Below the pieces are notes generated by a model. That model was not told where the DNA came from, made no database searches, and saw nothing but the letters and a program-made list of their open reading frames with translations. This document shows positions 28,749-60,689 of a stretch of 64,000 bases of DNA, one piece after another. The DNA comes from a virus: the IMG/VR virus record IMGVR_UViG_3300022562_001652, positions 49,816 to 113,815 of that record; one strand, given 5' to 3'. The position numbers and the translations under genes are program-made. Every line of letters begins with the position of its first letter. The stretch's first letter is position 1.

Positions 28749-29510
28749 CTATGACCCCTTCTCCGATACGTGCACGACACGAAGCTCACAGCGACACCCT
28801 ACATGGACAGAGCCAACTACAGGCAACCACTCTGTGGCATTCTCCCCTTTAAACGTAGGACGGCCAGCTCTACGACCAACATTGCTGCCGTTCGACATAA
28901 GCTGGTCAATACGAAAGACACGAGGTCTGCTCCCGTCAACCGTGTAGAGAAGTCGACAATAGGAGCAGCAGTCTGGGTGTGTTTTCTTCCAGACCAGCGT
29001 GGTAGTCCCACTCTTCTTGATGATGGACGAAGCCCTGCCCTCCTCCATCGCATCGTGGATCGTGGTCCCTATGTCACGACGCCACTCACGAGAGGCGACA
29101 GATAGCGCCTTCTCAATCTGACCTTTGGCTATAGCCAAAGCGGCTCGTCGTGCTTTGCTGAGGTCTCTGGCAGAGAGCTTCCTCTTACGCAGAAGAGAAG
29201 AACCTTCTCGTAGAGCCAGGCGTACTTTCGACAAGAGACGATCACGAACAGACTGGGCTATGTCGGTAAGCTGATCTCGCAAAGCATCAGCGGCTGCTCG
29301 ATCGATAGGGACCTTGCCTTTTTCGATCATAGACCTGACGTACCACACCGTCGGCATGCTGCTGCTTCTAGATCCAGCACCAGACAGAAACCCGAGAGCC
29401 ACGCTTACCTCTGGTAAGTCGCTACCTGTAACTCCCTTGATGAGTTTGGCATGTGCGTCTCGCACACGACGCACCAAGGCTGCTTCTTGACTTTTGGACA
29501 ACAGCCTCAC
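28749..29510 (-). CDS. MuF/SPP1 gp7-like minor head protein
   Basis: 253 aa; 'DCCSYC..LY' and 'HVGCRCEL' (HxxCRC) MuF signatures. Confidence 0.75.
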   Translation of the reverse strand: MRLLSKSQEAALVRRVRDAHAKLIKGVTGSDLPEVSVALGFLSGAGSRSSSMPTVWYVRSMIEKGKVPIDRAAADALRDQLTDIAQSVRDRLLSKVRLALREGSSLLRKRKLSARDLSKARRAALAIAKGQIEKALSVASREWRRDIGTTIHDAMEEGRASSIIKKSGTTTLVWKKTHPDCCSYCRLLYTVDGSRPRVFRIDQLMSNGSNVGRRAGRPTFKGENATEWLPVVGSVHVGCRCELRVVHVSEKGS

Positions 29511-30949
29511 GCAGCGTCCTCCTCACCGGTCGTCACAGTAGGTGAAGTCGGAAACATCCTCTTAGCCCCCTCGATCACCGTAACGAAATCTGACGACTTC
29601 GTAGAAGCCACGAAGACTTCACGAACAACAGGATCCCCCTCGTTGGCTCTATTGAGCGCTTCAGCAAGGAACGACAGCAGCTCGTCAAGACGCTCTCTCA
29701 GTACTTCGAGCGTTCCGTCCTCGGGAGAAGTCATGACGCGCAAGCGAAGGGCCGAAAGACAGGTTTCTCCCAGCTTGGTATCGGGGACCACTCCAGTAGA
29801 CAGCTCGTACGAAAGCTTTTCAGGATGCCAAGCAACCATGAGTGCGGCAGCACAGTACAACAGAACTACGACGTGCAACGGCGGCTGCCGGAGCTCATCC
29901 AGGCTGATCTCAGCTAGAGAGCCGATACTTTCTTCGTCTTCAGAAAGAAGTTTCTCGTTTGGAGAGATGCTTTCTTCGTCCCCCGCCACAAGCAGCCCTA
30001 GCCTAGATAGAGCTACGATAGCTGCTAGCACGTCATCGCACCAATCGGTAGTGCCAGACATCCGACTCCCTACGCTCGCTAAGAAAAGCGTGTCGGGATG
30101 AGAGGCCCCTTTGAGCCATGCGTCAGGAGAGGCGGCGTCTCCTTTCTTCAAAGAAGGAACACTTGATTCCTTCTCTCCGAGTAGGAAAGCCTGTCGACGA
30201 TTTTTTGACGCAACCACAATCGAAGAAAAGGTTGTCGGAAGACGTTCTGCACGAACGAGCGGATGTGGGGCTTCTTTCGAAACGTACGAAAGCGTCACGT
30301 GTGGGATATACCCATGCTTCCTAGACATGAGGCTTCCCAGCGATCCGAGCTGAGACAAGAGTCTGTTACGAAAATCAGGAAGCTCAGGTGAGTCTACGAG
30401 AGCGACGATCACGTCTTTTCCGTCACTGCTGTCGCTAGCAGCAAAACGACCCACACCCCCAACTTCCCCAGAAAAAGGGGCCTGTTTCGCAGCAAATCCC
30501 GACACGACAGAACAGAGACTGTCCCACGTATCACCGTCTGACGTTTCCGGGAAATAAGCGAGCGTCACGTGCATGTCTTCAGGAGAGACCGACCCGAGAG
30601 GAGCCAACTGCTTTCCTGTAGTCTGGGGTACTTCAAGAGCGATCATGATCCCAGAATGTTTGTTCTCGTTTGTCGTCGATTTGACGAGATCTTCTAGATC
30701 TCCAACAAAGATCCCGTCGGCCTTCTCCAACGGCTTCTTGGAAAGCACATCATCTAGTACAAAGCGCACGTCTCGTAGACACGCCTCGTACGTCGAGGAG
30801 AGTTCATCCTCCAAAGATGCAGCTGCTCCCGAAGACTTTGATCGGACGAGAAGCTGCGCCTTGAGAACGAAGTCGTCATCGAGCTGGGCTCCGTCGCCAA
30901 GTACGGCGTCGAAGACGGAGCCCAGCTCTTGTGAACGAACCCGTCGCAC
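29507..30949 (-). CDS. 2H-phosphoesterase-domain protein (Acb1/LigT-like) in the head module
   Basis: 480 aa; twin HxT motifs HVTLAY and HVTLSY about 90 aa apart. Confidence 0.8.
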   Translation of the reverse strand: MRRVRSQELGSVFDAVLGDGAQLDDDFVLKAQLLVRSKSSGAAASLEDELSSTYEACLRDVRFVLDDVLSKKPLEKADGIFVGDLEDLVKSTTNENKHSGIMIALEVPQTTGKQLAPLGSVSPEDMHVTLAYFPETSDGDTWDSLCSVVSGFAAKQAPFSGEVGGVGRFAASDSSDGKDVIVALVDSPELPDFRNRLLSQLGSLGSLMSRKHGYIPHVTLSYVSKEAPHPLVRAERLPTTFSSIVVASKNRRQAFLLGEKESSVPSLKKGDAASPDAWLKGASHPDTLFLASVGSRMSGTTDWCDDVLAAIVALSRLGLLVAGDEESISPNEKLLSEDEESIGSLAEISLDELRQPPLHVVVLLYCAAALMVAWHPEKLSYELSTGVVPDTKLGETCLSALRLRVMTSPEDGTLEVLRERLDELLSFLAEALNRANEGDPVVREVFVASTKSSDFVTVIEGAKRMFPTSPTVTTGEEDAA

Positions 30950-50551: not shown

Positions 50552-52479
50552 GCACCGACCATCCGGACCACCTGGAGAGACTGCTGGCCGCGTGGCCTGA
50601 GCGTGACCTCACGGTCTATCCTCTCAGTGAGGACGACTGGATCGTGTACCATGGCAGAGCCACTGAAGGAGGCATGCGCAAGGATTTGTCTCGCATGAAC
50701 GAGGCACAGGCCCGTCTCATCGCCGCCGCCATCAACGCCCTGCCCGAACTGATCGCGCGGGTGCGGGTCGCGGAGATGACACTGGCCGAACTCAGGGAGT
50801 GGACGCACCAGCACGGGCGCGCGCTGTGTCCACCGGGCGCGGACGCGTACGGCGAGGGCATGCGCGACGCAAAGGCGCAGGTCGACAGGCTGCTGGCCGC
50901 GCGCGGAGACACGCCATGACCAGCGAGGAGCGCGAGCGGCTGCGGGCGCGGGCCACTGAGGCGGTGGCGCTGGATTCGGGGGGTCGTGTCGGCGTTCTGC
51001 CAGGCGACCTCGTCGATCTCCTGGACGCCGACGAGGCGCGCGAGCGGGCAGAGGCTGAGTTGGTTGCTCTCCGAGCCGACCTCCGCGCTGAGGACAAGGA
51101 GAGCGAGCACCTGGGCGCCGGTCCCTACCGCAGGATGGCCGGCCGGTACCTCGACGAGATCGACCGTCTCCGCGCCGAGTTGGCCCGCGCCCACGAGCTC
51201 GAGGAGGCGACGCTGGCATACGAGGACGCCAGGGGCGACACAGAGGGGCACGGCGGGTCGCCCATGGAGGCGCTCGAGGAGTGGCTGTCCCGGGCGGTCG
51301 CCGCCAGCCGCGCGGCCCGGGCCAAACGAGGAGGCACCGATGAGTGAGCGTATCGTGTCGCCGTGGACGTATCACACGGTCCCCAGTCGGCAGGGGAGGC
51401 GCCGATTCAATTCACGCCAGCGACGGTATCTGGACAGGGTGAGAGAGGCGCTTGCTGACAGTTCAGCGCACGAACTGACGCCGCAGGAATACATGTGCTG
51501 CCTGGATGAGATTCGGGCAATGGTGGAGGCGATGGATGCGGCCGGCGAGTGAGTGGACGCAGCGCGCCTACGATCGGTGCGGTGTCGAAGGACCACAGAT
51601 AGGCGTGAAACGCGTTCTGGAGGAGGAATTCGCTGCCGCCCAGGCCGACGCGTTGGAGCACGCGGCGGCGCTGGTGTTCGACGCGGTCGCCGATTGGCTG
51701 CGCGTGGCACCCGACGACGCGGCGCTCGACGGTTGTGGACGCGTGCTCCTGGCCGAGCTCCGCGCCGAGGCCGCCAAGCTGCGAGGGGGAGGCGAGGGGT
51801 GAGCAAGCGCTACTTGGTCGAACAGCAGGCGTGGCCCGATCGAATCTGCGATGGTTCGGGGTCGCATTGGTACCCGAGAGCCGGGGCAGGACCGGCCGCC
51901 GTCCCCGAGGAGGAGGAGTAGACATGGCCTTCAATTGCACAACCTGTGGCAGAGGTGAGGACCGCTGCCGGTCATGCCAGCGCGACGGCCGCCGGGTGCG
52001 GCACAGTGAGCGGGTCCTGGCTCGCGTCCGAGTCCCGGGCGGGGTCAGATGGGAATGGGAGTGCGAGTGCGGTTCGCAATGAGCGTGCTTATCGACGACG
52101 AGCACGCGATCGCGGACGCGGACAAGGAGGCAACCCATGGGACTGTTCGACCGACAGCCGTTCCCGAGGAGGGGTAGGACATGGGATACCCGATGAGCTA
52201 CGCTCGAGACTAGCGCAGACGAAGGCCACGTTTTTTTCGACCGTCCGCCCTCCCTCCCTCGACAACGCTGCGCTGGATGCGCAGAACATGTCTGAGAAGG
52301 AGAAGGCAGTACCCGACCTTTCTAGCCTCCGAGTACGCCAGACTTCCCTAGTCCCCCTAGAGCGGGATAAAGACGACGGCACCACGGAGCGGGTTCTGTA
52401 CTGGCTGATAGGGGACGAGGTCTACGTGCACCCGCACCGTTGGCCAGAGTTCCTCCTCCTGGTGAACGGCGCCCCGTAG
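50548..52479 (+). other. Cluster of small hypothetical genes, mostly high-GC
   Basis: Coupled ORFs such as 50548-50919, 50916-51347, 51340-51552 and 51549-51802; ~70% GC in the sampled line. Confidence 0.5.
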
Positions 52480-52853
52480 CTCCACATATAAAGGAGGAGC
52501 TCCACAAGCGGAGGATAGTTCAAAAAAACCCTCCCAAAAAAAAACAAAAAAACGAGCGGGATGCCTAGCACCGCGATACCCCCTTCCCCGGCCTTTTTTT
52601 CCGTGGTTCACCTTACCGATCCCACGCCTTCCCTAGACCCCACTCCACAGACCACGTCAACCCCTACTCACACGGCGTACGGGGCTTGCCCATGCTTGGC
52701 GTGCGCTCCTGGTTCGCCGCGATCACAGCAGGCGCAGCAAGGGGTCCAACGGGCCTGCTGACGGCCGATCTCGATCACCGGGCCATAGGCGGACACGGCA
52801 GGTGAGCACGGCCTCACAAGCCCTGTGAGGGGCCTTCTACGCGGTGTGTGGAT

Positions 52854-52976
52854 GGACCAGGAGGGTTACCCCTAGGCCACGTCTATCCCCTCTCACAAGC
52901 TCTGTGAGAGGACCAGGAGGGTTACCCCTAGGCCACGTCTATCCCCTCTCACAAGCTCTGTGAGAGGGGATAGACG
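52854..52976. repeat. 56-bp tandem repeat (x2) ending in an 18-bp perfect inverted repeat
   Basis: Units 52854-52909 and 52910-52965; IR arms 52936-52953 and 52959-52976 (CGTCTATCCCCTCTCACA). Confidence 0.9.
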
Positions 52977-53591
52977 GGACACAGGAGTACGATCCCACAG
53001 GGCTTGCGCTCCTGGCGACCGGGCATCGCCGGTGTGGTGAAAACCAGCATGTCGGATTTTACCGTAGTGAAAACCCACAGCAGTGTAGGAAAACCCCACG
53101 ATCCAGGCCCCGGATCGGCGGGATCCGGGGTAGCGGGATGCTACCCGCCCCTAGTGTTTCTGGCCACTTAGGCGTTTTTCCCCTTCCCCAGGGTACTCTG
53201 GCCGGGTTGCTGCATCGTGATCCGGCGAGGCGAAATACGCCTGCTTGCGCCGCTTGCGAGGCTGACGTGGTCAGCCGGAAAGCACCGTCCGAATGGACGA
53301 AACACCACTCCCCTACCCTGGGGACGGCGGGAAATGGTTCCCGTGTGTCCTCTGGTATCGGGGAGTGGTTTGGAGGTTTCCTATGTTCGCTGGATCCCTT
53401 GACGGACGGCTCTTTATTGGGACCTTGGACGACATCATCGACGCGCTCTTTGCGTCGACGATGCCGTCGCCAAGGTTCCGGTCCTTTTCATTCGATATCG
53501 CTTTGGCCACTGACCCTGACGGTGTAGTGACCGTCAGGGCTATCTGTGCCCGTACGGGCACAACCCTTCTAACCCTGTGAGAGGAGAAACC

Positions 53592-53993
53592 ATGAGCGAA
53601 GAAAACAAGATCGAAGGTCAGACTGTCGTGGAGAAGGCTCCGCGCAATCGACGCGAAAGGCGGGAAATGGAGCAGAGCAAGGGGAGTGGTGGTCGTGGTC
53701 AGGATCAGGCCGTGGCCAAGGTCGATGACGTCGACGTCCTGGCCAGCGCGACGGCGGCGATCACTGCACACGCCAACATCGACGCGGAAATCTTCGCGTC
53801 GTTTTCCCCGCTGTACGCCACCCTGGCCAAGGTGGATGTCGCGCTGGCCAGCGCGACGGAAGAAACCCGGCCAACCCTGGAGTTGACGCGAGCCCGCGTG
53901 ATGGATCAGCTCCAGGCTCGTAAGGACGGCGCCGCCCGTGCCTTCCGTGGTCTGTACCGCGACATCATGGTCAAGCACACCGGCGGCAAGTAG
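53592..53993 (+). CDS. Hypothetical protein
   Basis: GAGGAG RBS before ATG 53592. Confidence 0.6.
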   Translation: MSEENKIEGQTVVEKAPRNRRERREMEQSKGSGGRGQDQAVAKVDDVDVLASATAAITAHANIDAEIFASFSPLYATLAKVDVALASATEETRPTLELTRARVMDQLQARKDGAARAFRGLYRDIMVKHTGGK

Positions 53994-54025
53994 GTCTCCC
54001 CGCCCGATCCCACGGGATCGGGCCA

Positions 54026-54073
54026 TCATCTCTCACACCGTGTGAATCTGTGCCCACACGGTGTGAGAGATGA
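54026..54073. repeat. 19-bp perfect inverted repeat with a 10-nt loop
   Basis: TCATCTCTCACACCGTGTG / CACACGGTGTGAGAGATGA; preceded by a 9-bp hairpin at 54002-54023. Confidence 0.85.
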
Positions 54074-54084
54074 GGGAAAACGGG

Positions 54085-54897
54085 ATGAGCAAGCTAGACA
54101 AAGCCTATCGGCTTGAGAGCACCTTGCGTGCGCTCACCGGTACGCTGGATCCGCTGGCGGATCCGCTTTATGACTGCAAGGTCCGGGCTATCCTGGACCT
54201 TGCGGGCGTTGCCCTGCCGTCAGAGTACGACGGCAACGGCGCTATCCGCGTCGTCGACGCGCCCGACGCCAAGGTCCCGTATCGTCGCAACCCGACGGTA
54301 CGGGTGACCTGGCGTGGTGTCCCGTCGGGTCTCGCGACGGTCAAGGATGCGCGTGGTGTCCCGACCGTTCAGGTTGCCTCGCAAGGTGAGGTTACCCACG
54401 GCAATCTCGACCCTCGGATCGAGATTGCCGACCTTAGCCGGCGCAAGGCGCTAGCTCGGGAAGCAATCCGCAAGGCATGGTGCAGGTTGTCTGCACATGC
54501 CAAGCGTAGGATCCGTCGAGCGCTGGCGTCGGGTCAGGTCGCGCTGGCTAGACCTGCTAGCGCGACCTTGGTTGTGCCCGATCGCTGGCCAGCGCTGGCC
54601 GTTCTCGGTCGCATCGTGGCCAGCGTGGCGGTACGCGCAGCAAGGGACGCGCGTACCGCCAGCGTGGCGTCAACCTACGCCGCGCACAACGTCGAGGCGC
54701 CTAGGCCAGCGGTTTCCCGCCAGCCTAAGACGATCTTTCGCGTCGACGGGGAATTCGTTGGCCCACTCCGGCAGGATGCCAAGGTCGGGCATCCCGCCAA
54801 GGTCGGTCGACTGGCTGACCGTGTGCCTTGTACCGAGTGTGGGACAGGAACACGGCACCCGTCGCGACTGTGCGGCGAATGCCTGAAAGGGGAGTGA
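54085..54897 (+). CDS. Basic hypothetical protein with C-terminal Zn finger
   Basis: ~270 aa; CTECG...LCGEC. Confidence 0.55.
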   Translation: MSKLDKAYRLESTLRALTGTLDPLADPLYDCKVRAILDLAGVALPSEYDGNGAIRVVDAPDAKVPYRRNPTVRVTWRGVPSGLATVKDARGVPTVQVASQGEVTHGNLDPRIEIADLSRRKALAREAIRKAWCRLSAHAKRRIRRALASGQVALARPASATLVVPDRWPALAVLGRIVASVAVRAARDARTASVASTYAAHNVEAPRPAVSRQPKTIFRVDGEFVGPLRQDAKVGHPAKVGRLADRVPCTECGTGTRHPSRLCGECLKGE

Positions 54898-54900
54898 AAC

Positions 54901-55113
54901 ATGCGAACCATCAAGATGGCACGTTACCCACTGGCCAGCGCTGTGCTGGCCTACGTGGAGACCCGCGCGGATTCTCGCGCGGCCCACTTTTGGAATCGCC
55001 TTGTCGACCACGCGCACGCGATGATCGCGTGCGACTTCGTCGAGGAGGGAGACATGGACGCGGCGTGGGGCTGCGTCGCGTCCCTTCATGGAGAGCTCGG
55101 GGTGGCAGCGTGA
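54901..55113 (+). CDS. Hypothetical protein
   Basis: 70 aa; GGGGAG RBS. Confidence 0.55.
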   Translation: MRTIKMARYPLASAVLAYVETRADSRAAHFWNRLVDHAHAMIACDFVEEGDMDAAWGCVASLHGELGVAA

Positions 55114-55197
55114 CGATCCACGTCACGCTTTCGTGGCCGGTCGTGGCCGCTTTGTGCGCCGCGATCGTCCTCTGGGCCCTGATCCGGCGCAAGCGCT

Positions 55198-55268
55198 AAA
55201 AGCTGCGCCGCTACTGCGCCGGCCTAGCGGCGAGCGTAGGCTGAAAAGCTGCGCCGCTACTGCGCCGG
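55198..55268 (+). repeat. 25-bp perfect direct repeat with a 21-nt spacer
   Basis: AAAAGCTGCGCCGCTACTGCGCCGG at 55198-55222 and 55244-55268. Confidence 0.85.
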
Positions 55269-55274
55269 TGTTTC

Positions 55275-55326
55275 CCCTACGGGTGGTCCGTAGTGCGCTC
55301 GGGTTCGATTCCCGAGGTAGGGGCCA
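55275..55326 (+). ncRNA. tRNA-like element 1 (52 nt, no anticodon arm)
   Basis: CCCTAC/GTAGGG acceptor; GGG-TGG-TCC mini D arm; CTCGGG-TTCGATT-CCCGAG T arm; G+CCA. Confidence 0.7.
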
Positions 55327-55387
55327 AAAAGCGCGTGTCAGATCGGCACGCGCTAGTGCGTCTAAAAGACGCAAAAGGAGACATACC

Positions 55388-55954
55388 ATGACCAAGCACG
55401 TCATCGTTTCGCGTCATCCCGCCGCCGTGTCTTTCATCCGGGCCGAGTGCCCGGAATTCGCGGACGCGGAAGTGCTCGCGTCCGCCACGGCGGAACAGGT
55501 CCGCGACGCGATCATCGCAGGCAACCTGCCACTTCACCTCGCGGTGGAAGCCCGCGAGGTCTGGGCCGTGGAGTTCGCCGGCTCCGCGCCGCGTGGGGCC
55601 GAGTATGGCCTCGATGAAATGCGCGCGGCGGGGGCGCGCATCGCGAAGTACGCGGTAGCGCACCGGTCGTGCGCCGGTTCGGGATACGAGCACCACGATC
55701 CGTGCTCGTTCCTGGCTTCGGAGCACGTGGTCGACACGCAAACCGAGGAGCGTGTCCCGGTTTGCGTTTGGCATCAGGCCCGGTGTCTTTCCGCAAAGCG
55801 GTACCGGAAGGTTGCGGGTCCCGACGATCCCCAGCCGGATGGGGCTGTATGGGCCCCGTACGGCTGGAACGATGGATGGTATCGGTGGGATTGGATGTAC
55901 CACCTTCCCACCGGGCCGGATGATCGACCGCAACCCACATCCCCACGGCCGTAG
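55388..55954 (+). CDS. Csx16-like (Cas_VVA1548-type) domain protein with a C-terminal extension; putative ring nuclease
   Basis: AAGGAG RBS; 'VSRHPAAV.F', 'GNLPLHLA', 'RGAEYG.DEM.AAGARI..Y.V' match the Csx16 pattern. Confidence 0.65.
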   Translation: MTKHVIVSRHPAAVSFIRAECPEFADAEVLASATAEQVRDAIIAGNLPLHLAVEAREVWAVEFAGSAPRGAEYGLDEMRAAGARIAKYAVAHRSCAGSGYEHHDPCSFLASEHVVDTQTEERVPVCVWHQARCLSAKRYRKVAGPDDPQPDGAVWAPYGWNDGWYRWDWMYHLPTGPDDRPQPTSPRP

Positions 55955-55969
55955 GACCTGTGGGCCATC

Positions 55970-56030
55970 CCCTACGGATGGATCCGCCCGTTTCTGCGGG
56001 TGTCGGGTTCGATTCCCGATGTAGGGGCCA
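55970..56030 (+). ncRNA. tRNA-like element 2 (61 nt)
   Basis: CCCTAC/GTAGGG; GGA-TGGA-TCC; hairpin GCCCG-TTTCTG-CGGGT; GTCGGG-TTCGATT-CCCGAT; G+CCA. Confidence 0.7.
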
Positions 56031-56044
56031 ACAGGAGGAGACGA

Positions 56045-56506
56045 ATGGAGATGATCATCCTCCGGGGCCTGCCCGGCTCCGGGAAAAGCCACTACGCCGC
56101 GCAGTTTGCGGCGAACGAACCAACGAAGAAAGTCGTCGTCGCGTCAGCCGACGACTTCTTCATGACCCCGAACGGGTACCGGTTCGACCCGTTCAAGCTG
56201 ACGGCGGCGCACGCAAGCTGCTTCCGCCGCGTGCTCAACGCATTGGAAGCGGACGTCGACGACATGGTGTTCGTCGACAACACGAACTCCACGGCGTGGG
56301 AGATGTCGCCATACGTGATGTTGGCGAACGTGTTCGATGTGCCCTTCGTCGTCTTCAGGATCGAGTGTGATCCTGAAGTTGCGTACGCACGGCAACGCCA
56401 CGGCGTTCCGCGCGAGACGTTCGATGCGATCGGCCGCCGACTCGCCACGGAGTGGATCCCTCCGTGGTGGGTACAACGAAGTGCGCCGGTAATGCGCCGG
56501 AGGTAG
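56045..56506 (+). CDS. AAA_33 P-loop kinase (polynucleotide-kinase/N4BP2-like)
   Basis: 'ILRGLPGSGKS', 'SADDFF', 'VDNTN...WEM.PY', 'R..HGVP' motifs; AGGAGG RBS. Confidence 0.85.
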   Translation: MEMIILRGLPGSGKSHYAAQFAANEPTKKVVVASADDFFMTPNGYRFDPFKLTAAHASCFRRVLNALEADVDDMVFVDNTNSTAWEMSPYVMLANVFDVPFVVFRIECDPEVAYARQRHGVPRETFDAIGRRLATEWIPPWWVQRSAPVMRRR

Positions 56507-56508
56507 CC

Positions 56509-56727
56509 ATGGAAGACAAGATTCGGGAGATCCGTGAGCGGGTGCGCCTGCGGCGCAAGGATGCTGAGATCGCCAGTTTCAAGGCTGGCGATCCGGTGTC
56601 CTACCGCCGCCGGGGCATGCTCCATTTCGGAGCGATCCTCTCGATCGAGGATGGGATCGCCAAGGTGTCCGCTTCCGGTGGTGGGTACAACGAGGTACCC
56701 ACCACCATGCTCAGACCCTCCAGGTAG
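56509..56727 (+). CDS. Small SH3/KOW-like protein
   Basis: 'FKAGDPVSY......G.I..I' pattern; GGAGG RBS. Confidence 0.5.
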   Translation: MEDKIREIRERVRLRRKDAEIASFKAGDPVSYRRRGMLHFGAILSIEDGIAKVSASGGGYNEVPTTMLRPSR

Positions 56728-56975
56728 AAGGTAGAAAGGAGAAACCGATGCACTGGCCGTAGGACGATCCTTTGGTGCGTTCCAACTAATGGCGACACAC
56801 CGGGATGTGCCTAAGCGCACTGTTCAGTCCCGGAACAAGTCTAGGAGACCGGCATGACTTGGATTAACGCGTGACCGCGAAGTACCGTCGAACGTAGAGA
56901 CGTGCGTCTATCGACGGGCGCGGATAAGCCGTAACGTCTGACGAGCAGGTCAAAACTGTTCAACCGGGCTCGTCG

Positions 56976-57112
56976 CCCACGCCGTGGAAAGCGGCGGGTA
57001 GTGCCTGATCCACAATGTATGTCTTTGTGTTGTGAACAGAAGCGCGCTCTGTCACCCCAAGACTCGTTGGTGGTTCGGAACGAGAGCGGTTCGACTCCGC
57101 TCCGTGGGCCCA
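56976..57112 (+). ncRNA. tRNA-like element 3 (137 nt, multi-hairpin insert)
   Basis: CCCACG/CGTGGG; CCG-TGGAAAG-CGG; three inner hairpins; GAGCGG-TTCGACT-CCGCTC; C+CCA. Confidence 0.65.
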
Positions 57113-57301
57113 AGGAAAAGCTGAGAGGTGCCCGGGTGGCTCCGGGCTAGTCGGGGTGTCTATTTCCCCGATGAACAAGCGGACTAAGCTACCGCAAAAA
57201 AAGGCCCTCGCCCTGGATCGGGCCGCCGCCGGTGAGCGGCGATAGCTGAGGACGCAGAGGGGTTCGCCCCGGTGAAGGCGGATCTCGGCTCTCACCACCT
57301 T

Positions 57302-57348
57302 GCGCAGGAGGGGTTTGTAGGCGAGTTCGACTCTCGCCCTGCGCCCTA
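57302..57348 (+). ncRNA. tRNA-like element 4 (47 nt, minimal)
   Basis: GCGCAG/CTGCGC; GAG-GGG-TTT; GGCGAG-TTCGACT-CTCGCC; C+CTA. Confidence 0.6.
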
Positions 57349-57361
57349 AAAGGAGACAAAG

Positions 57362-57604
57362 ATGGCACGCAAGTGCAAATGCCACGAAAGAGTACGTCAG
57401 GCCATGGATCGTGGAATGGGCTTCCACGAAGCCTACGCTAAGTACGGACGACCTGGGTACCACGAGCACAGGTGTGAGTGTCCCTGCGGATGCAAGCAAG
57501 ACACACTGGGGTACGCATACTGTCCTTACTGCCATTTCGAGCATGCGGAAAGGCGTGGCGAAGTGATCGGGATCCTCGGGCTCCCCTTCAAGAAGAAGGA
57601 TTAA
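57362..57604 (+). CDS. Cys/His-rich small protein
   Basis: 80 aa; CECPCGC...CPYC; AAGGAG RBS. Confidence 0.6.
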   Translation: MARKCKCHERVRQAMDRGMGFHEAYAKYGRPGYHEHRCECPCGCKQDTLGYAYCPYCHFEHAERRGEVIGILGLPFKKKD

Positions 57605-58000
57605 TGCCCACCACGAAGAAGAAGAAGAAGAGCAGCAGGCAGCTGCTGCTTCTGAGCTGGCGCTGTGCCAATTGCAGGAAACTCGTATCCGCTTTCGTGC
57701 GGACGAAGGGCGATCGGGGGCGCGCATGCCTGCGGCTGTTTCCGCGCCACAATTGCGCCGCTGCTGCGCCCGCTGAAGCTTCTACAGGAGGAAAGTGAAG
57801 ATGAACGTTCACGTGATCGAGATCTCTGATGAAGAGGCGTGGATCCTCGCGGTGCGGGCTCGCGTTGCTCTCGGGGCCTCTCTCGAAGAAGCAGCCTCTA
57901 TCACGAAGAGAAACGCTCCAGAGCTCGCCGCCCGCGTTCTGGATCGCATCGGTAGCTGGCCATCTAGCTACCTTGAGCTGCGGGCGCTGCAGGAGCTACC

Positions 58001-60600: not shown

Positions 60601-60689
60601 GAACGGCGTATCTCAAGTGGTAGAGAACCTGCAACGATCTCGTAAGGTCTTGTAGGAAGATGCCGGTTCGAATCCGGTCGCCGTTCCCA
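60601..60689 (+). tRNA. Non-canonical tRNA with a 29-nt extended anticodon arm (identity unclear)
   Basis: AACGGCG/CGCCGTT acceptor, TA, TCTC-AAGTGGTA-GAGA D arm, GCCGG-TTCGAAT-CCGGT T arm, C+CCA; G at -1. Confidence 0.7.

Follow-up and report, generated by a model that had tools for sequence, protein, structure and literature searches.

GOLLD and ROOL are large non-coding regions of phage genomes that are often found near tRNA genes. At a smaller scale, plant mitochondrial t-elements, which carry a GGTTCRANYCC motif, are cut by ribonuclease (RNase) P and RNase Z; t-element ends coincide with the mRNA ends made by these two enzymes, with addition of CCA-type tails (Forner et al. 2007, PMC1920247). 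YrlA RNAs, which are about 110 nt long and are found in phages, are tRNA mimics, and a bacterial one, the M. smegmatis form, whose acceptor stem has 7 bp, is a substrate of RNase P and acquires a CCA (Chen et al. 2014, PMC4201824). Here we describe a 634-nt gap between two open reading frames (ORFs) in the early operon of a phage, at positions 56728-57361 of a 64,000-nt window that forms the last 64 kb (G000:C1:49816-113815) of the 113,815-bp virus record IMGVR_UViG_3300022562_001652. Coordinates refer to this window unless the record is named. A first-pass annotation of the window had proposed that the gap encodes one hairpin-dense structured RNA of about 620 nt. The gap is a real, non-coding stretch, and it consists of ordinary spacer together with two members of a phage tRNA-mimic family.

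This family was delimited with a detector that requires a TTCRANY loop on a 5- or 6-bp stem and an acceptor strand completing a perfect 12-bp stack, with the partner strand no more than 170 nt upstream. The 114-kb genome yielded six such elements, compared with 0.17 per Markov shuffle. Two of the six are tRNAs, a real one and an odd one of 88 nt at 60602-60689; the remaining four are non-tRNA modules (M1 to M4), all on the + strand and within 2.07 kb of one another:

55275-55326, + strand: M1, outside the gap, a 52-nt acceptor/T-arm element with a GCCA end

55970-56030, + strand: M2, outside the gap, a 61-nt miniature cloverleaf with a GCCA end, also aligned by the mascRNA model (27.8 bits)

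56976-57112, + strand: M3, a 137-nt tRNA-like element

57084-57102, + strand: T arm of M3, GAGCGG TTCGACT CCGCTC (containing GGTTCGACTCC), which aligns to the T arm of the tmRNA model

57302-57348, + strand: M4, a 47-nt acceptor/T-arm minihelix

M3 and M4 are thus non-random and part of a four-copy module family in the early operon, and within the gap the module motifs are specific to the + strand. The tRNA-like modules by which the first-pass annotation had divided the gap into four are indeed present, and they set pieces of 248, 137, 189 and 47 nt, in agreement with its estimate. The 3' halves of M1 and M2 are identical at 28 of 29 bases, these two being the only alignable pair among the modules within the genome. 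Placement is likewise regular for two of the four: 14 nt separate the end of M2 from the ATG of a kinase gene, and 13 nt that of M4 from the ATG after it. An N-CCA end is encoded in three of the modules (M1, M2 and M3), with C-CTA at the corresponding place in M4.

M3 combines an acceptor stem of 6 bp (CCCACG/CGTGGG) with a 102-nt body, made up of four hairpins, and a 6-bp T stem, followed by a discriminator C and the encoded CCA, so that its 12-bp acceptor/T stack (6+6 bp) carries the T loop UUCGACU and a 3' C-CCA. Its first acceptor pairs, as read from the sequence, are C1-G72, C2-G71 and C3-G70, not the G3:U70 of tmRNA type. M4 consists of an acceptor stem GCGCAG(G)/(C)CTGCGC, a 12-nt linker and the T arm GGCGAG TTCGACT CTCGCC, then C-CTA; its stack can be read as 6+6 or 7+5 bp, and an alternative reading extends the element to 95 nt (57251-57345). 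A T arm with the GTTCRANYC loop of tRNAs occurs twice in the gap, as GGTTCGACTCC at 57088-57098 in M3 and as GAGTTCGACTCTC at 57323-57335 in M4. The sequence features of a t-element, namely a T arm of GGTTCRANYCC type, an adjacent acceptor stem, no decoding arm, and an intergenic position on the coding strand, are all found here, with M4 departing from the motif at two positions.

The tRNA-like folds of the modules lie 0-2.6 kcal above the minimum free energy (MFE) structure; the constrained fold of M3 lies 1.9 kcal above it, and the cloverleaf of M2 is itself the MFE structure (fold z-score -2.56). T stems are almost certain in the ensemble for M1 (pair probabilities ~1.0) and M3 (0.99-1.0) and less so for M2 (0.65-0.76) and M4 (0.33-0.92). 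The corresponding values for acceptor pairs are ~1.0 in M2, 0.04-0.57 in M3, 0.15 in M4 and 0.02 in M1.

Complete tRNAs and other known RNA families were not detected in the gap. A cmscan search of the whole window against Rfam 15 returned no match at the gathering threshold, and at E values up to 10 the gap gave only a tRNA-Sec alignment and a tmRNA T-arm fragment. The tRNA-Sec model aligns end to end at 57251-57345 with 20.8 bits (gathering score 47) and a broken anticodon stem (3/6 pairs), and 17 nt of the tmRNA T arm align at 57085-57101 with 12.1 bits. GOLLD, ROOL, tmRNA, YrlA, group I and II introns and small ribozymes had no Rfam match in the gap, in keeping with the first-pass annotation, which did not recognise the region as GOLLD or ROOL. 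The YrlA model recovered an RNA at a related locus (L047, described below) with 36 bits as a positive control, whereas for the gap it gave no match up to an E value of 10. ARAGORN in default mode called no tRNA in the gap, its sole call in the window being the odd 88-nt tRNA at 60602-60689, and its default -m search found no tmRNA. Relaxed settings (-ps70/80, intron, mitochondrial and tmRNA modes) produced mostly noise and one 93-nt 'tRNA' at M4. The combination of a D arm with an anticodon stem of 5 bp and loop of 7 nt, at an above-threshold tRNA score, was found in the gap by neither ARAGORN nor Rfam.

Other tRNA-type elements of this genome were also recorded. The 88-nt tRNA at 60602-60689 is normal in its acceptor, D and T arms but has a greatly lengthened anticodon arm; it encodes a CCA and has a possible G-1:C73 pair; its fold z-score of -4.2 is the best among the RNA elements tested. 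Outside the window, at G000:C1:16945-17101 on the minus strand, ARAGORN calls a tRNA-Ile (AAU) beside a suppressor tRNA with a UUA anticodon (reading UAA), and a T arm near G000:C1 position ~31441, also on the minus strand, has a 3' end, CACCGTTCCCA, similar to that of the odd tRNA at window position 60602.

We propose, with about equal measures of confidence and doubt, that the gap is an untranslated part of the + strand early-operon transcript in which two mimics of the tRNA top half serve as processing or stability signals between spacers. In this model, the acceptor/T stack would be recognised by host tRNA-processing enzymes, with RNase P acting at the 5' side of a module and RNase Z, or RNase E with exonucleases and CCA repair, at the 3' side. 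The polycistronic phage message would be cut at the modules, and cleavage would give downstream genes short, defined leaders and upstream messages structured ends, while releasing small tRNA-like RNAs. The 248- and 189-nt stretches would be spacer with ordinary hairpins and mini-ORFs. Precedents for such recognition are the plant mitochondrial t-elements and, among bacterial tRNA mimics, YrlA. We infer transcription, cleavage and an effect on expression from the presence, geometry and placement of the modules in a non-coding gap. If the modules are truly cut by host tRNA enzymes, early phage messages would mature through a mitochondrion-like 'tRNA punctuation', for which the literature searched holds no formal description in phage biology.

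Several observations weigh against this proposal. Acceptor closure is weak in the ensemble, at 0.02 for M1, 0.15 for M4 and, among the M3 pairs, 0.04-0.21 for the inner ones. M1, M2 and M3 begin with a C and have a -1:73 position that can pair, which is a non-optimal context for RNase P, and M4 lacks the CCA. No credible gene start follows M3, so that as punctuation M3 marks nothing obvious, and the model gives the 248- and 189-nt spacers no role.

The non-coding status of the gap was examined with respect to both strands and to its borders, which are:

56509-56727, + strand: upstream border, 72-aa ORF with a GGAGG-N5-ATG start and stop codon TAG

57362-57604, + strand: downstream border, 80-aa Cys-rich ORF with AAGGAGA-N5-ATG at 57350-57364, 13 nt past M4

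The three + frames of the gap hold 7, 8 and 10 stop codons, and TAA, TAG and TGA all occur. An alternative genetic code was considered in view of the UUA-anticodon suppressor tRNA; stop-codon reassignment cannot open the gap because its + frames are closed by all three kinds of stop. On the minus strand, an ORF of 255 aa (56960-57727) overlaps the gap. This candidate gene was rejected on account of its flat GC content per codon position (0.62/0.56/0.61), its low-complexity translation and its lack of any Pfam or PHROG match; nearly all of the real genes compared have low GC at the second position (0.38-0.55) and high GC at the third (0.64-0.82). The gap is therefore non-coding, as the first-pass annotation had held. 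The stop-free peptides of the gap gave no Pfam or PHROG match. A tblastn comparison of the gap with 7,577 ORFs, taken from 88 loci and from the phage genome itself, to detect gene remnants gave matches at chance level only. A scan for promoters and terminators gave nothing useful and no evident terminator/antiterminator alternative. Of the bordering ORFs, the 72-aa one has no family match in Pfam or PHROGs and a GC content per codon position of ~0.61/0.49/0.78.

The proposal of a single structured RNA of about 620 nt, of the GOLLD/ROOL class, starts from a large ORF-free gap in a dense operon and from many inverted repeats, and all twelve repeat pairs listed in the first-pass annotation are present at the expected places. 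Folding energy was the comparison by which that annotation had itself chosen to be judged, and here the proposal failed, with the + strand folding no better than dinucleotide shuffles. The whole gap has an MFE of -253.1 kcal/mol compared with -245.0 +/- 7.5 in 60 shuffles (z-score -1.08, with 9/60 shuffles folding as well; -1.36 with 20 shuffles), short of the folding clearly above shuffles expected of a large structured RNA. Its segments, each compared with 200 dinucleotide shuffles, gave the following values:

56728-56972, + strand: z-score -0.16, 81/200 shuffles as good

56970-57113, + strand: z-score -1.52

57113-57303, + strand: z-score -0.74, 47/200 shuffles as good

57250-57350, + strand: z-score -1.71

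Sliding windows of 120 nt ranged from -2.1 to +0.7 within the gap, compared with -3 to -7 in the coding region 54000-54700. The minus strand of the whole gap reaches a z-score of -3.1, a point in favour of a large RNA that we attribute to ordinary Watson-Crick stems, conspicuous against shuffles with less G-U pairing.

Short hairpins (perfect stems of at least 5 bp with loops of 3-12 nt) are more frequent in the gap than in its shuffles (19 versus 7.5). Per 100 nt, this corresponds to 3.0 in the gap, compared with 6.0 in the kinase and 72-aa genes, 5.6 in the gene of a Csx-like protein, 4.9 in a 275-aa ORF, 3.5-3.6 in the genes downstream of the gap and 1.7-1.9 in the capsid and portal genes. 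Hairpin richness is thus a trait of the early operon as a whole, and it is less marked in the gap than in the neighbouring coding genes. Across the early-operon genes (52400-58000, + strand), densities of 3.5-6 hairpins per 100 nt are well above those of their own shuffles, with z-scores up to 7.2. Folding much stronger than anywhere within the gap is seen at 53000-53633 (z-score -6.6 on the + strand and -7.0 on the minus strand) and at 54000-54119 (-6.8). Long inverted repeats occur at 52923-52989 (31-nt arms) and 54023-54076 (22-nt arms, 95% complementary), partly inside ORFs without a family match.

A single large RNA is very improbable on these data, given + strand folding equal to shuffles at every scale, a hairpin density below that of the flanking coding genes, the absence of an Rfam match, two internal module ends of CCA type that point to several pieces, and a 5' stretch of 248 nt in which hairpins are rarer than by chance and two ribosome start sites occur. 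The practical value of the analysis is mostly corrective, in that the gap is not worth pursuing as a GOLLD/ROOL-type molecule; the elements that merit experiments are the 137-nt M3, the 47-nt M4 and perhaps the two mini-ORFs that accompany these ribosome start sites. The spacers and their contents are as follows:

56728-56975, + strand: 5' spacer, 248 nt, with no tRNA-like module and no Rfam match

56736-56762 (ATG at 56748), + strand: candidate 4-codon mini-ORF MHWP, AAGGAGA-N5-ATG, stop codon TAG

56843-56874 (ATG at 56854), + strand: candidate 6-codon mini-ORF MTWINA, AGGAGA-N5-ATG, stop codon TGA

56885-56917, + strand: longest local hairpin in the 5' spacer, in which CCGTCGA ... TCGACGG encloses a further stem of 5 bp

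57113-57301, + strand: 189-nt inner spacer; its hairpins include several ordinary GC ones and one with a GGGG-UUCG-CCCC tetraloop

The 5' spacer holds one short hairpin compared with 2.6 expected, and the inner spacer nine compared with 3.0 expected (P 0.03). Sites of the form AGGAGA-N5-ATG are seen twice in the gap against ~0.03 expected in 634 nt (an estimate from base composition). Among the gene starts examined between 54 and 60 kb, AAGGAGA-N5-ATG or AGGAGA-N5-ATG is found at the real starts 55388, 57362 and 60199, and related Shine-Dalgarno variants are found at 56045, 56509 and 58001. The first-pass annotation had named small ORFs as an argument against its structured RNA, and to the extent that sequence can speak to this, the argument applies in part, in the form of the two mini-ORFs with their canonical start sites.

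These mini-ORFs may be translated tiny ORFs or else the orphaned starts of lost genes. If they were leader peptides, MHWP and MTWINA would regulate downstream expression or RNA stability; the canonical start sites, in excess of chance, and the Trp at codon 3 of both peptides speak for such translational control, as does a kinase-homologue locus (L008, below) in which a 3-codon ORF with a Shine-Dalgarno sequence comes right after a tRNA-like element. We nevertheless regard the prospects of this explanation as poor, since no terminator/antiterminator alternative is evident and the next gene is 500-600 nt away with M3 and M4 intervening.

Relatives of the gap RNA were sought at several levels. 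No homologue was found by blastn against GenBank phages, and exact module patterns had no match in IMG/VR or GTDB genomes; as a tRNA end, the 3' halves of M3 and M4 occur in no GTDB genome. Protein-guided scans with the kinase, the 80-aa protein, the capsid, a HATPase and the Csx-like protein led only to distant loci, L002 and L003, both of which have homologues of the 80-aa protein and neither of which has the gap RNA. None of these routes led to a relative of the phage itself. Two proteins encoded upstream of the gap were informative for comparison of context:

55388-55954, + strand: Csx-like protein of 188 aa, whose N-terminal 90 residues match Cas_VVA1548 (PF09652, 7.7e-08)

56045-56506, + strand: AAA_33/polynucleotide-kinase-like P-loop kinase (Pfam PF13671, 1.7e-15; PHROG 2071 and 505)

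The closest homologues of the kinase have 51% identity, and the set used for context comprised 80 metagenomic loci with kinase homologues of 33-45% identity. By blastn, none of these 80 loci holds a homologue of the gap. A tRNA gene on the same strand within 200 nt is found in 5/80 kinase loci, compared with ~1.4 expected (an estimate from the tRNA density of the loci). In L047, a contig of a freshwater-type metagenome, a YrlA-like tRNA-mimic RNA (819-922; 36 bits, gathering score 69) lies between the kinase homologue and a tRNA-His. In L049, a 45-nt acceptor/T minihelix with a GCCA end (1909-1953), not called by ARAGORN, stands in a tRNA cluster beside the kinase homologue and abuts the ATG of an ORF whose translation, judged by eye, resembles an HNH homing endonuclease; further along, at 2540-2880, a long hairpin and another T-arm element lie in a non-coding stretch of ~480 nt. 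L008, a contig that also has a kinase homologue, carries a 69-nt tRNA-like element with a GCCA end (35-103), again not called by ARAGORN. It is followed, up to position 137, by AAGGAGA-N6-ATG and a 3-codon ORF (MSH), which overlaps the start region of an ORF resembling (by eye) a Pth2-type peptidyl-tRNA hydrolase.

Because of the tRNAs, tRNA-like RNAs and introns in these loci, the kinase tends toward tRNA- and RNA-rich neighbourhoods, and in our reading this phage has tRNA look-alikes where other kinase loci have tRNAs. Group I introns lie beside tRNA genes at L033:1271-1472 (78 bits), a kinase locus, and at L084:1680-1874 (62 bits), which comes from the record of the 80-aa homologue L002.

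This context raises the question of a decayed cluster of tRNA genes and small genes beside the kinase, in which M3 and M4 would be pseudo-tRNAs that keep the most stable parts of tRNAs and the rest of the gap would be debris with no current function. Consistent with decay, kinase homologues elsewhere adjoin real tRNA genes, M4 aligns end to end (20.8 bits) with the model of a long-variable-arm tRNA and attracts the relaxed ARAGORN call of 93 nt, CTA stands at M4 where CCA would be expected, the mini-ORFs look like orphaned gene starts, and the spacers fold at chance level. Decay is harder to reconcile with a perfect 12-bp stack and a T-loop consensus kept in all four modules, with the near-identity of the M1 and M2 3' halves, or with the fixed short distance of M2 and M4 from the start codons that follow them. 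Moreover, the tblastn search brought up no gene remnant of significance, M3 and M4 have 3' halves that occur as a tRNA end in no GTDB genome, and useless DNA is usually lost fast from phage genomes. We consider decay unlikely.

The neighbouring proteins bear on a further explanation, that of free-standing tRNA-like RNAs. M3, and perhaps M4, would here be stable small RNAs for RNA repair or counter-defence, either by offering a decoy or ligand to host factors directed at the acceptor end of tRNAs, or by partnering the adjacent polynucleotide-kinase-like kinase and Csx-like protein. The encoded CCA and closed multi-hairpin body of M3, the proximity of polynucleotide-kinase-like and Cas_VVA1548-domain proteins, the YrlA-like RNA beside the kinase homologue in L047 and the 88-nt tRNA with an extended anticodon arm in the same genome all fit such a role, and RNAs of the YrlA type, which RNase P cuts, have been described in phages (PMC4201824). 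Against this, no homologue was found, M3 matches neither YrlA nor any other Rfam family and has a fold z-score of only -1.5, and there is no known target. Free-standing RNAs are thus decidedly unlikely. There is also a slim chance that M3 is, more specifically, a stable RNA of 137 nt that serves as decoy or adaptor, in concert with the polynucleotide-kinase-like and Csx-like proteins, to counter tRNA-attacking host defences. Such an RNA would represent a new class of phage tRNA-mimic effector, in which a four-hairpin body takes the place of the D arm and the anticodon arm. In the window no cas genes came to notice, though no search aimed at them was made.

The phage that carries the gap is an uncultured myovirus, and the record has short direct repeats, 144 bp and exact, at its termini. 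Compared with their counterparts in Herelleviridae-type phages, the portal, sheath and major head proteins reach no more than 35% identity, which indicates distant kinship only. A marine-sediment metagenome is the sole public run that holds DNA of this phage and is probably its source; the listing names no run of RNA. From ~53 kb to the end of the window, all genes called are on the + strand.

Some further features of the window may be mentioned. In its structural module, a 480-aa protein (29507-30949, minus strand) contains a 2H phosphoesterase domain (2_5_RNA_ligase2, 7.6e-12; LigT) and also has a weak match to the anti-CBASS protein Acb1. Near the 3' ends of the kinase and 72-aa genes, a 19-nt direct repeat with a GTGGTGGGTACAACGA core occurs at 56464-56482 and 56678-56696 (18/19 identical). 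A 25-nt motif based on TGCGCC-N5-TGCGCC is present in four copies, at 55198-55222, 55244-55268, 56476-56500 and 57748-57772; two are exact copies just 5' of M1, and two, at 76%, lie 9-30 nt 5' of the starts of the 72-aa gene and the gene at 57801. This motif may be a regulatory or protein-binding site.

Among known systems, the gap modules resemble the t-elements of plant mitochondria in having a non-canonical tRNA-like fold, a GGTTCRANYCC T arm with an acceptor stem, and a position beside or between mRNAs on the coding strand. They differ in that the setting is a phage operon, that CCA is encoded in M3, that the stack is best read as 6+6 rather than 7+5 bp, and that M3 contains a 102-nt multi-hairpin body. 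The mascRNA family of MALAT1 and MEN-beta (RF01684) offers a comparable case of a small tRNA-like cloverleaf that lacks a decoding anticodon loop, and in vertebrates it is an RNase P/Z signal. M2 aligns with the entire length of this model, with a score below the gathering value of 42.5, and M3 and M4 have no match. Since mascRNA belongs to vertebrate nuclear long non-coding RNAs, its likeness to M2 is one of form, not homology. YrlA (RF02553) shares with M3 a T arm and an acceptor-like stem. In YrlA, however, a Ro-binding stem encloses the T arm, a capped acceptor hairpin and the D arm in this permuted order, whereas M3 has free 5' and 3' acceptor ends and neither a D arm nor a Ro-binding stem. 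From GOLLD and ROOL the gap is set apart by the lack of an Rfam match, whether at gathering thresholds or at E up to 10, by folding that does not exceed chance and by its division into pieces. Canonical and long-variable-arm tRNAs, including tRNA-Sec (CL00001), have the T arm and acceptor stem in common with the modules and, in the case of M3, the encoded CCA; the tRNA-Sec alignment at 57251-57345 differs from them in its score (20.8 bits versus 47), its broken anticodon stem and the lack of a default ARAGORN call. Finally, 'species 1 and 2' of the phage T4 tRNA cluster are stable RNAs of ~120-140 nt that are co-transcribed and processed with tRNAs and, likened to the present modules by description only, provide a lead for further comparison.

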